NCBI RefSeq assembly: GCF_003018255.1
Contig: NZ_CP027440.1
Reading direction: 5' to 3' (one strand)
Source of the DNA: Escherichia coli
Lineage (GTDB): Bacteria > Pseudomonadota > Gammaproteobacteria > Enterobacterales > Enterobacteriaceae
Length of the DNA: 64,000 bases
Part shown: positions 52,944-55,061 of the stretch, one piece after another
How positions within the stretch are numbered: the stretch's first letter is position 1
How the letters are laid out: the number at the start of each line of letters is the position of its first letter
Made by a program: the position numbers and the translations under genes
Notes under the pieces: model-generated
Told to the model about the DNA's origin: nothing
The model's database searches: none
What the model saw: only the letters and a program-made list of their open reading frames with translations

Positions 52944-53029
52944 GAACGAAAAAGGCCGCAGAGTTTCACCCCTGCGGCCTGATCCGGGCGCAAATTGCCA
53001 TTACGGCAGCCTGACGCCCGCATGACACG

Positions 53030-53137
53030 TTACTTCCGCTTGTTCAGCCAGTTCACGATCATGCTGGCAAGAATGCCAGCAATGATCGGAGCCGCTAAAT
53101 CATGCCAGAAGGCCATGCCCAGTTCTGCGAGCGTCAT
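53030..53137 (-). CDS. ldrD: Type I toxin Ldr (35-aa membrane peptide), copy 1
   Basis: MTLAELGMAFWHDLAAPIIAGILASMIVNWLNKRK, a close match to the Ldr family; intrinsic terminator (GGCCGCAGGG…CTGCGGCC plus U-run) downstream on the minus strand. Confidence 0.8.
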   Translation of the reverse strand: MTLAELGMAFWHDLAAPIIAGILASMIVNWLNKRK

Positions 53138-53187
53138 ATAGCCGCCTGTGTTGTAATGACAACGTTTCGCGGCTATTCTTGAGTTGT

Positions 53188-53253
53188 TTGGGTTCAAGAA
53201 TGGCCCCCGTGGTGTTGTCAGGTGCATACCTGCAACGTGCGGGGGTTTTCTCT
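53188..53253 (+). ncRNA. rdlD: Rdl antisense RNA, copy 1 (antitoxin of Ldr)
   Basis: Plus-strand segment …GGTTCAAGAATGGCCCCCGTGGTGTTGTCAGGTGCATACCTGCAACGTGCGGGGGTTTTCTCT with a CCCCCG/CGGGGG stem and U-run, opposite the ldr leader; 5' end approximate. Confidence 0.55.
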
Positions 53254-53512
53254 CTCCAGCAAACAATGCCACCAGGGATTAAGCCCCCGCAACATTGCGC
53301 CTCACCGGAACCTTTCCGGCTTGCCGCTGATTCTACGACTGTTTTTCTGCTCCGGAATCCGTCACGTCTTCACTCTGTGCTGCGCATTCCGCAGAATATT
53401 ATCCGCTTGCAACCGTTGCATTTTTCTTACGAAAAAGGCCGCAGAGTTTTATCCCTGCGGCCTGATCCGGGCGCAACTTGCCATTACGGCAGCCTGACGC
53501 CCGTCTGACACG

Positions 53513-53620
53513 TTACTTCCGCTTATTCAGCCAGTTCACGATCATGCTGGCAAGAATGCCAGCAATGACCGGAGCCGCTAAATCATGCCAGAAGGCCATG
53601 CCCAGCTCTGCGAGCGTCAT
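53513..53620 (-). CDS. ldrD: Type I toxin Ldr, copy 2
   Basis: MTLAELGMAFWHDLAAPVIAGILASMIVNWLNKRK. Confidence 0.8.
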   Translation of the reverse strand: MTLAELGMAFWHDLAAPVIAGILASMIVNWLNKRK

Positions 53621-53670
53621 ATAGCCGCCTGAGTTGTAATGACAACGTTTCGCGGCTATTCTTGAATGGT

Positions 53671-53736
53671 CTAGATGCAAGAATGGCCCCCGTGGTGTTG
53701 TCAGGTGCATACCTGCAACGTGCGGGGGTTTTCTCT
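53671..53736 (+). ncRNA. rdlD: Rdl antisense RNA, copy 2
   Basis: Same element as copy 1, shifted by 483 bp. Confidence 0.55.
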
Positions 53737-53995
53737 CTCCAGCAACCAATGCCACCAGGGATTAAGCCCCCGCAACATTGCGCCTCACCGGAACCTTTCC
53801 GGCTTGCCGCTGATTCTACGACTGTTTTTCTGTTCCGGAATCCATCACTTCTTCACTCTGTGCTGCGCATTCCGCAGAATATTATCCGCTTGCAACCGTT
53901 GCATTTTTCTTACGAAAAAGGCCGCAGAGTTTTATCCCTGCGGCCTGGTCCGGGCGCAAATTGCCATTACGGCAGCCTGACGCCCGTCTGACACG

Positions 53996-54103
53996 TTACT
54001 TCCGCTTATTCAGCCAGTTCACGATCATGCTGGCAAGAATGCCAGCAATGACCGGAGCCGCTAAATCATGCCAGAAGGCCATGCCCAGCTCTGCGAGCGT
54101 CAT
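53996..54103 (-). CDS. ldrD: Type I toxin Ldr, copy 3
   Basis: MTLAELGMAFWHDLAAPVIAGILASMIVNWLNKRK. Confidence 0.8.
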   Translation of the reverse strand: MTLAELGMAFWHDLAAPVIAGILASMIVNWLNKRK

Positions 54104-54153
54104 ATAGCCGCCTGAGTTGTAATGACAACGTTTCGCGGCTATTCTTGAGTTGT

Positions 54154-54219
54154 GTAGGTTCAAGAATGGCCCCCGTGATGTTGTCAGGTGCATACCTGCA
54201 ATATGCGGGGGTTTTCTCT
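54154..54219 (+). ncRNA. rdlD: Rdl antisense RNA, copy 3
   Basis: Same element as copy 1, shifted by 966 bp. Confidence 0.55.
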
Positions 54220-54478
54220 CTCCAGCAACCAATGCCACCAGGGATTAAGCCCCCGCAACATTGCGCCTCACCGGAACCTTTCCGGCTTGCCGCTGATTCT
54301 ACGACTGTTTTTCAGCTCCGAAATCCGTCACTTCTTCACTCTGTGCTGTGCATTCCGCAGAATATTATCCGCTTGCAACCGTTGCATTTTTCTTACGAAA
54401 AAGGCCGCAGAGTTTTATCCCTGCGGCCTGATCCGGGCGCAAATTGCCATTACGGCAGCCTGACGCCCGTCTGACACG

Positions 54479-54586
54479 TTACTTCCGCTTGTTCAGCCAG
54501 TTCACGATCAGACTGGCAAGAATGCCAGCTATGACCGGAGCCGCTAAATCATGCCAGAAGGCCATGCCCAGTTCTGCGAGCGTCAT
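54479..54586 (-). CDS. ldrD: Type I toxin Ldr, copy 4
   Basis: MTLAELGMAFWHDLAAPVIAGILASLIVNWLNKRK (M-to-L variant). Confidence 0.8.
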   Translation of the reverse strand: MTLAELGMAFWHDLAAPVIAGILASLIVNWLNKRK

Positions 54587-54636
54587 ATAGCCGCCTGTGT
54601 TGTAATGACAACGTTTCGCGGCTATTCTTGAGTGGT

Positions 54637-54702
54637 CTAGGTTCAAGATTAGCCCCCGTGATGTTGTCAGGTGCATACCTGCAACGTGCGGGGGTTTTCT
54701 CT
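54637..54702 (+). ncRNA. rdlD: Rdl antisense RNA, copy 4
   Basis: GTCTAGGTTCAAGATTAGCCCCCGTGATGTTGTCAGGTGCATACCTGCAACGTGCGGGGGTTTTCTCT, close to the RdlD sequence as I recall it. Confidence 0.6.
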
Positions 54703-55061
54703 CTCCAGCAACCAATGCCACCAGGGATTAAGCCCCCGCAACATTGCGCCTCACCGGAACCTTTCCGGCTTGCCGCTGATTTTACGATTGCTTTTTACCG
54801 TCAGCACCCGGCAATCTTCCTCATTGCGTGATGCCTTCCAGCTTAATTTCTTTATTTGCATTAGTTGCAGTTCATATCCGGGCTGACTCCAGACTGGTAG
54901 TGAAATGCGCAATTTTGTAGAATTGCGCCTCCTCGCGACCTCCCCAGTGAATCTGTTGCCTCATTTTTTACATACTGCGTATTCGACTTCTCCACCTGTT
55001 GCGCAAGAGAAACTGGGTTTATTCATTTTTGCGAGGCCGACTTCTTTCTGGACAGGACTTT

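Follow-up and report, generated by a model that had tools for sequence, protein, structure and literature searches.

The closest described system is the K-12 LDR-D module (ldrD b4453/rdlD b4454), for which the named source is reportedly the work of Kawano et al. in 2002. It shares with the locus analysed here the bcsG-yhjV intergenic location, the orientation, the overall anatomy and the Rfam and Pfam families. The peptides are identical at 33-34 of 35 positions, with F3 in K-12 against L3 in the window (the whole 64-kb stretch of Escherichia coli DNA under analysis), and the nucleotide sequences are ~96% identical. The two differ in that K-12 has one unit and the window four, and in that window units 1-3 carry an 83-bp linker which is absent from single-copy loci. 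A first reading made from the sequence alone (hereafter the sequence-only reading) had stated that K-12 possesses a single copy here and its tandem array elsewhere, and both points were borne out, the latter being the three-copy array between kdsA and chaA. This array, LDR-A/B/C (ldrABC/rdlABC), is also a tandem Ldr/Rdl array within one intergenic region and is copy-number polymorphic between strains (PMC7232551); however, it represents a different locus and subgroup: its nucleotide identity to the window is ~80% across the 395-bp core, its repeat period is 535 bp, and its linker is unrelated to that of the window.

Two further type I systems offer useful parallels. Like the window units, the Ibs/Sib modules are multi-copy, partly tandem and cis-antisense, although their toxin family is unrelated and Sib spans the whole ORF; small differences in the recognition region let each Sib repress its own ibs only (Han et al. 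2010, PMC2943612). The hok/sok system, found both on plasmid R1 and in chromosomes, resembles ldr in its long 5′ UTR and in antisense pairing upstream of the toxin start. Its leader ORF, mok, couples translation, and a corresponding model has been proposed for ldrX/ldrD (PMC4147584, PMC8594479). The toxin families are nevertheless different, and the leader-ORF mechanism, proven in the case of hok, is for ldr a proposal that the literature has yet to confirm (PMC4147584). Earlier papers (Kawano 2002; Fozo 2010, PMC2887945) already cover the module and its locus as well as the tandem duplication and strain variation of Ldr loci.

Anatomy of the bcsG-yhjV array

The sequence-only reading had described four near-identical 483-bp ldr/rdl units in the bcsG-yhjV gap, a description confirmed by Tandem Repeats Finder (TRF), a separate repeat search, the ORFs and Rfam. 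TRF recovered a 483-bp period at 52946-54796 (3.8 copies, 96% matches, 0 indels, score 3420), and the separate search returned four head-to-tail copies with a spacing of 483/483/483. This is the sole long-period array in the window, and it fills the gap between the bcsG stop at 52943 and the yhjV ORF, which runs from 54999. TRF, the repeat search and unit alignment delimit LDR-D-type units 1 (52946-53428; 483 bp, comprising a ~400-bp core and the 83-bp linker), 2 (53429-53911) and 3 (53912-54394). Unit 4 (54395-54795) consists of the core only and is followed by a unique yhjV-side spacer, as in single-copy genomes: it has sequence in common with units 1-3 only over the first ~400 bp, the alignment diverging after column ~400, and the sequence beyond its core aligns with the downstream DNA of K-12 and of the single-copy strain 2014C-3338. 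BLAST detected no similarity of the linker to the K-12 LDR-A/B/C linkers, the post-unit-4 sequence or the bcsG end. In the unit alignment the units differ from each other at 4-5% of positions, with private substitutions in every one of them.

All four 35-aa ldr ORFs are intact and lie on the minus strand. ORF 1 (53030-53137) encodes MTLAELGMAFWHDLAAPIIAGILASMIVNWLNKRK (35 aa plus stop), which occurs as WP_000170735.1 at the same position in the genome of DETEC-S792; ORF 2 (53513-53620) encodes the commonest variant, MTLAELGMAFWHDLAAPVIAGILASMIVNWLNKRK (WP_001295224.1), and ORF 3 (53996-54103) an identical peptide; ORF 4 (54479-54586) encodes the ...ILASLIVNWLNKRK variant (WP_000170738.1). The peptide differences quoted earlier are correct, PIIAG occurring in unit 1 and ASLIV in unit 4. 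The Pfam Ldr_toxin match (PF13940, E=1.3e-26 for ORF 1) spans residues 1-35 of 35; Pfam was used in place of an NCBIfam HMM scan, in which the three peptide variants gave no matches. All four ORFs end in NWLNKRK, the family being marked by a conserved Trp that follows the transmembrane helix and by a charged C-terminus.

On the plus strand, opposite to ldr, are four full-length matches (1-66 of 66) to RF01813 (rdlD; gathering score 50 bits): Rdl-1 at 53186-53251 (84.6 bits), Rdl-2 at 53669-53734 (81.8 bits), Rdl-3 at 54152-54217 (79.7 bits) and Rdl-4 at 54635-54700 (90.4 bits). Together with the Pfam match, these uphold the earlier identification of Ldr/Rdl type I toxin-antitoxin units, and the units belong with the LdrD subgroup by their bcsG-yhjV location, their convergence with bcsG and their greater closeness to LDR-D than to LDR-A/B/C. 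Each Rdl is complementary to the 5′ UTR of its own ldr mRNA, 49-114 nt upstream of the ATG and without overlap with the ORF, and its predicted fold leaves the 5′ tail single-stranded ahead of a terminator hairpin. The window units differ at 4-6 positions within the 66-nt Rdl; O157 and RIVM_C040348, each with a single unit, share the 5′ tail of Rdl-4 unchanged, and the K-12 tail differs from it at 2 positions.

The ldr-1 mRNA is bounded by an intrinsic terminator (52946-52980, minus strand) with an 11-bp GC-rich stem and a T run, and the terminator scan placed its counterparts in units 2-4 on the same strand at 53429-53463, 53912-53946 and 54395-54429. Chance alone would give 3.0 terminator-like sites; the scan found eight, and every unit has one for each of its two transcripts. 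A putative rdl-1 promoter (TTGTAA-17 nt-TATTCT; 53151-53179, plus strand), read by eye, ends 6 nt ahead of the Rdl 5′ end and recurs every 483 bp. It is invariant in all four window units and agrees with the consensus at 8 of 12 positions against a scan threshold of 9; the sigma-70 consensus scan of 52800-55100 returned no promoters. A putative ldr-1 -10 box (TAGAAT at 53330-53335, minus strand; TAAAAT in unit 4), also picked out by eye, would give a ~375-nt mRNA ending at the terminator, and inspection by eye found no convincing -35 box with it. Within the Rdl-1 target lies an ATG at 53227; this leader ATG is in frame with ldr, with no stop between, in all four window units, and across 40 units from 14 sequences (the window and 13 fetched genomes) a stop interrupts the in-frame upstream ATG in five.

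Proposed working of the units

We propose, with a probability of about 0.9, that the array consists of four chromosomal ldrD/rdlD type I toxin-antitoxin units in tandem and is a common allele of a 1-to-~6-unit polymorphism at bcsG-yhjV. Judged by their sequences, all four units look functional. In each, the minus strand would yield an mRNA that has a long 5′ UTR, is bounded by the terminator and encodes the 35-aa hydrophobic Ldr peptide, toxic if overproduced; the plus strand would yield the ~66-nt Rdl, a perfect complement of that part of the ldr 5′ UTR which precedes the ribosome-binding site. If the units behave like K-12 ldrD/rdlD, Rdl, which is short-lived, would hold the stable ldr mRNA untranslated, perhaps by blocking the leader reading frame in a hok/sok-like fashion. 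This scheme draws on PMC4147584 and PMC2887945, and from such literature we infer the expression, toxicity, mode of repression and dosage effect to be expected of the window array; what the sequences themselves show is its anatomy, its family, how frequent it is, its age and the signatures of recombination. Toxicity on overproduction and its relief by the cognate Rdl have been demonstrated for the K-12 LdrD/RdlD pair only (Kawano 2002, as relayed by PMC4147584). An effect of copy number on dosage is plausible. The units are shuffled, lost and gained through unequal homologous recombination between them.

Nucleotide diversity reaches 0.18 in the 16-nt single-stranded Rdl 5′ tail as against 0.04 for the whole unit. 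The tails are all different among the four window units, and in 10 of the 11 multi-copy arrays examined no two are alike. Predicted tail duplexes have energies of -28 to -30 kcal/mol for cognate pairs versus -12 to -23 kcal/mol for non-cognate ones. The tail is likely to be the nucleation site for pairing and, given that variation is concentrated in it, the copies may be partly insulated. We therefore raise, tentatively, the idea that the array units might be insulated cognate toxin-antitoxin pairs and not redundant copies. Ibs/Sib provides the precedent, with the difference that experiments have demonstrated discrimination by Sib, whereas for Rdl it is proposed. Were each Rdl to act mainly on its own ldr, recombination would shuffle partly orthogonal modules, and copy number would alter the number of independent switches, not the dose. 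A neutral explanation is at least as likely: the Rdl tail could simply be unconstrained, because a mutation in a cis-antisense tail alters both partners together.

It is improbable, in our estimate, that the array is instead a decaying selfish or junk repeat in which only the yhjV-adjacent unit, the ldrD orthologue, works and the internal units are silent relics. Such a state would fit with the fact that no phenotype is known for deleting any chromosomal Ldr locus (PMC7472228), with a copy number free to vary from 1 to 6, and with the presence, upstream of the putative ldr -10 box, of the 83-bp linker in the internal units, unlike the last unit. However, the ORF, ribosome-binding region, Rdl hairpin and terminators are intact in each of the four units, and Rdl-3, which departs from Rdl-1 and Rdl-2 by three substitutions, retains its predicted stem. 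Furthermore, peptide variation is low: in the 14-sequence set 29 of the 40 units encode an identical peptide, with synonymous variants frequent and non-synonymous ones rare, and the internal unit types are conserved from strain to strain and between species.

Copy number in E. coli and age of the array

Copy number was surveyed in 5,426 complete E. coli genomes. The copy classes were scored by synthetic flank-only queries of graded length, with the joining distance as the ruler; whole-region query coverage is unable to separate them, as overlapping pieces get joined. The largest class has a single copy (2,095 genomes, 39%), followed by three copies (1,842, 34%), four copies (about 851, 16%, or roughly one in six), two copies (535, 10%) and five to six copies (~66), all as given by the distance rule of the search tool, which may misclass a few percent of the genomes where there are insertions or truncated flanks, and in a collection that over-represents clinical lineages, so that the percentages are not population frequencies. 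Evenly spaced genome samples agree with these counts. Some three-copy loci first looked bcsG-less in the whole-region search, and on closer look are ordinary three-copy loci. At least two ldrD/rdlD units are present in about 61% of the genomes. The rarity of four copies implied by the sequence-only reading does not hold, the comparison across genomes showing in substance that four copies are common at this locus. The four-copy finding is an ordinary one, since about a sixth of complete genomes share the state and RefSeq already annotates such loci (Ldr family toxin/protein ×4), and it carries little weight as a discovery. On the copy number of the bcsG-yhjV Ldr locus we found general statements in the literature and no published survey.

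It follows from the census that K-12 is not representative of the bcsG-yhjV locus, and anyone studying the function of Ldr, persistence or knock-outs outside K-12 has to reckon with 2-6 near-identical copies. The array is also a hotspot for unequal recombination and for contig breaks in draft assemblies. Together the census and the chimeric units described below make a clean case of type I toxin-antitoxin copy-number dynamics, and open no new question.

Copy number changes by unequal crossing-over. Unit 1 of O111 is a chimera that begins as O103 unit 1 and continues as O103 unit 3, and the single unit of 2014C-3338, compared by gapped alignment owing to a 1-nt deletion, corresponds to window unit 1 over columns 1 to ~136 and to window unit 4 from column ~204 to the end. 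Both chimeras support the earlier view that the array is prone to recombination. The flanks of 2014C-3338 show no difference from the window in the 375 and 875 nt next to the array (100% identity), and close relatives can therefore differ in copy number. Such a one-copy relative, along with the single copy in K-12, in O157:H7 and in 39% of genomes, could be read in favor of a recent strain-specific tandem amplification of one LDR-D copy, that is, an unstable dosage amplification, as the earlier wording suggested. This explanation is very improbable and already contradicted. The unit-1/unit-4 chimera indicates a four-to-one collapse in 2014C-3338 and not a one-to-four expansion in the window. 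Beyond this, the window units stand 4-5% apart, their differences extending even to the short Rdl, and as many as 851 genomes share the four-copy state. Every unit type recurs in unrelated strains, often elsewhere in the array, as is seen from the same Rdl-tail unit types at different array positions. The 483-bp unit with its linker is present in other Escherichia species: Escherichia sp. E1V33 and SCPM-O-B-8794 each carry a two-copy array, and the latter, although its record is titled E. coli, represents a different Escherichia species in the per-species collection. An ldr gene abuts bcsG in Salmonella arizonae and diarizonae, Citrobacter, Pseudocitrobacter and Kluyvera. Going by these sequence comparisons, the array is old and its units diverged, and it is not a fresh amplification.

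That the array was expanded or mis-joined by the assembler is the least credible explanation of all, for although ~0.5-kb tandem repeats exceed short-read length and are often mis-assembled, and draft contigs do break within the ldr repeat (one E. albertii contig ends in the ldr unit), the private substitutions of each window unit argue against it, four-copy arrays are found in hundreds of complete genomes, and the independent complete genome of DETEC-S792 contains all four units, in unchanged order, at 99.9% identity, which, with the 4-5% divergence, sustains the earlier claim that the copies are no trivial assembly duplication.

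The array and its constituents

The space between bcsG (stop at 52943) and yhjV (start at 54999), in the chu-gad-bcs-dpp region of the Escherichia coli chromosome, holds the sole long-period repeat of the window, an array at 52946-54796 with a period of 483, 3.8 copies, 96% matches and 0 indels according to Tandem Repeats Finder. A second repeat search of the window spaced its four copies exactly 483 bp apart. Units 1-4 (52946-53428, 53429-53911, 53912-54394 and 54395-54795) align without gaps at a mean identity of 96% of columns, unit 4 matching units 1-3 only in the first ~400 columns and continuing into unique sequence. 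Each contains a minus-strand ORF for the 35-aa Ldr toxin (53030-53137, 53513-53620, 53996-54103 and 54479-54586), whose peptide is covered over all 35 residues by Pfam Ldr_toxin (E=1.3e-26), and a plus-strand, full-length Rfam rdlD match for the antisense RNA Rdl (53186-53251, 53669-53734, 54152-54217 and 54635-54700; 79.7-90.4 bits, gathering score 50). Intrinsic terminators were predicted once per transcript, that is, two per unit (8 sites vs 3.0 expected in the scan). Across repeats, ORFs, Rfam, terminators and Pfam, the four-unit ldr/rdl array described by the sequence-only reading is thus right in every detail, including the peptide variants PIIAG and ASLIV, and every sequence-level membership test places it in the Ldr/Rdl family and its LdrD subgroup.

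In line with that reading, K-12 MG1655 has one ldrD/rdlD unit here and its tandem array elsewhere, as three ldrABC units between kdsA and chaA. What sets the window array apart from the K-12 unit (LDR-D) is solely its copy number and the 83-bp linker separating the window units (53346-53428, 53829-53911 and 54312-54394). No similarity of this linker was detected to the linkers of the K-12 LDR-A/B/C array, the sequence after unit 4 or the end of bcsG; in internal units the sequence preceding the putative ldr -10 box is replaced by this linker.

Elsewhere in the window, Rfam matches (2360-2391, 12063-12134, 17914-18026 and 62774-63193) to the shuA/chuA 5' UTR thermoregulator, ES205, GadY, naRNA4, RtT and one tRNA are all expected for such a chromosomal region; the thermoregulator lies upstream of a 660-aa ORF (haem receptor), and the lineage is therefore chu-positive. 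Compared with intact bcsG genes of 1680 nt, the adjoining bcsG (51263-52943) has one extra nucleotide near 52023-52028, which breaks it into two overlapping ORFs, 51263-52063 and 52029-52943. Over a 1.2-kb stretch of this bcsG, the indel is all that distinguishes the window from the best of 5,399 matching E. coli genomes (99.9%); hence the frameshift is private to the window sequence, and reflects either an error in sequencing or the loss, in this strain, of the cellulose phosphoethanolamine transferase.

Copy number across E. coli

Of 5,426 complete RefSeq E. coli genomes, 5,425 gave a match to the whole region. Among 60 records sampled at even spacing, 12 had four units, 18 three, 6 two and 23 one; the annotation of the four-unit records reads 'type I toxin-antitoxin system toxin Ldr family protein (x4)'. 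For a census, synthetic queries of graded length containing the two flanks only were used, the joining of the flanks serving as a copy-number ruler (joining limit of the search: half the query length + 500 bp). Flanks were joined across one unit in 2,095 genomes, across up to two in 2,630, up to three in 4,472, up to four in 5,323 and up to five to six in 5,389, giving class counts of 2,095 (38.6% of 5,426), 535 (9.9%), 1,842 (33.9%), 851 (15.7%) and ~66 (1.2%), respectively. These classes are borne out by the spans among the matches listed, which include true five-unit arrays in XH992 and Z0117EC0005. With the array and its flanks as query, the best match was at least 99% identical in 61 records, headed by DETEC-S792, where the same four units follow one another as in the window. 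The census and the existing annotation therefore establish four copies as a common, already annotated state, found in 851/5,426 genomes, and the rarity implied by the sequence-only reading is not supported; in substance, the locus shows the very commonness of four copies that would speak against it. The array represents a common allele of a type I toxin-antitoxin repeat that is known, annotated and polymorphic, nothing new in kind, and it is K-12 that is atypical at this locus.

In some genomes, such as AGR6128 (NZ_OZ043763.1), the span across the locus exceeds the usual one by 1.4-3.2 kb, and its annotation includes a HipA-family type II toxin and a helix-turn-helix gene, which suggests that DNA has been inserted next to the Ldr array, in or near yhjV/dppF. 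In ETEC4077 a large deletion (extracted locus 115-3998) removes bcsZ/B/A/Q/R/E/F and fuses truncated bcsC to truncated bcsG, adjoining a three-unit Ldr array. Plasmids provide 27 places among the whole-region matches (e.g. NZ_CP195449.1, a 195-kb plasmid), a few E. coli plasmids having a toxin unit of the Ldr family (~81% identity) or a bcsG that has diverged (~76-77% identity). In the early literature, Ldr is reported to lack homologues on plasmids.

Putative expression signals and variation of the Rdl tail

Overproduced LdrD kills E. coli and RdlD relieves the killing; RdlD does not cover the ribosome-binding site, and an as yet unconfirmed proposal is that a leader ORF, ldrX, would couple translation in the way that mok couples that of hok (PMC4147584, PMC8594479). 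Each window Rdl shows complementarity to the part of the ldr mRNA that lies 49-114 nt ahead of the ldr start codon, and an ATG inside this target (53227 in unit 1) shares the ldr reading frame in each of the four units; a stop codon breaks that frame in 5 of the 40 units compared (those of the window and 13 genomes), all five from other genomes. Each predicted Rdl combines an unpaired 5' tail with a terminator hairpin that is long and GC-rich (about -30 kcal/mol); the predicted stem survives the three substitutions by which Rdl-3 departs from Rdl-1 and Rdl-2. The sequence TTGTAA-17 nt-TATTCT, a plausible promoter for rdl, ends 6 nt ahead of the Rdl 5' end, is invariant in all four units, and scores 8/12 consensus positions, just below the scan threshold. 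For ldr, a candidate minus-strand -10 box, TAGAAT (TAAAAT in unit 4), would yield an mRNA of ~375 nt; since no good -35 box was found, we only infer this promoter.

All four window units retain intact ORFs, Rdl hairpins and terminators. Among the 40 units, 29 encode an identical peptide; six synonymous ldr variants are frequent (up to 19/40 units) and six non-synonymous ones rare (1-3/40), a pattern that fits purifying selection. The most variable part of the unit is the 16-nt single-stranded 5' tail of Rdl (plus strand; 53186-53201, 53669-53684, 54152-54167 and 54635-54650), with 7/16 columns variable and a diversity of 0.177 vs 0.039 over the unit (hypergeometric p about 0.006, the sequences not being independent). 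The four window tails are all distinct, differing pairwise at 2-4 positions, and their predicted duplexes reach -28 to -30 kcal/mol for cognate and -12 to -23 kcal/mol for non-cognate pairs. These differences resemble those of the Sib/Ibs antisense RNAs, where they make each RNA specific for its own toxin mRNA (PMC2943612), and the same might apply to Rdl. A simpler reading is neutral: any tail mutation in a cis-antisense pair alters both partners together, and the tail is for that reason free to drift. That the units are partly insulated switches rather than extra doses is an unlikely interpretation, to which we give roughly one chance in four.

Unit types, recombination and age of the locus

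In a neighbour-joining tree the 40 units do not group by genome, and unit types, as told for instance by the Rdl 5' tail (10 variants), recur in differing array positions; in 7/11 multi-copy arrays examined the yhjV-side unit has the tail of the single-copy O157 locus. Recent amplification was considered and rejected, as the array fails the tests for it and its unit types are common to unrelated strains. Recombinant units provide a clear record of how copy number changes. Unit 1 of an O111 array is a chimera, its first variable sites being those of O103 unit 1 and the rest those of O103 unit 3, and by this pattern is the product of a four-to-two deletion. Similarly, 2014C-3338, whose flanks match the window at 100% identity across the 375 and 875 nt next to the array, has a single unit that follows window unit 1 to ~column 136 and window unit 4 from ~column 204; judged from these segments it is a four-to-one collapse by unequal crossing-over. 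In this unit (extracted locus 2876-3358) the C5 run within the Rdl stem is short by one C; unless this is a homopolymer sequencing error, the loss would weaken the Rdl hairpin.

A single scan of a collection with one genome per bacterial species recovered ldr directly downstream of bcsG, in convergent orientation, in E. albertii, E. whittamii, Escherichia sp. E1V33 and SCPM-O-B-8794 (another Escherichia species, in a record titled E. coli), as well as in Salmonella enterica subsp. arizonae and diarizonae, many Citrobacter species, Pseudocitrobacter and Kluyvera. Given this occurrence across genera, the locus is ancient. Arrays of two units that share the 483-bp period and 83-bp linker of the window, at 85-88% identity, occur in E1V33 and SCPM-O-B-8794, and this range also holds for the linker itself; the 483-bp tandem is thus probably older than the diversification of E. 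coli. In Kluyvera sichuanensis, three units with a period of their own lie downstream of bcsG (extracted locus 6600-8200); Kluyvera arrays, including that of K. ascorbata (extracted locus 1-760), contain two or three Ldr units repeating every 500-530 bp or so, unlike 483 bp. With this differing period, the same locus has expanded separately in another genus, so that, as read from these repeats, tandem expansion here happened more than once. Both its age and its repeated expansion agree with Fozo et al. 2010 (PMC2887945), who reported 2-10 Ldr genes per Escherichia or Shigella genome and inferred that LdrD and LdrB split ancestrally, with duplications in individual lineages coming later.
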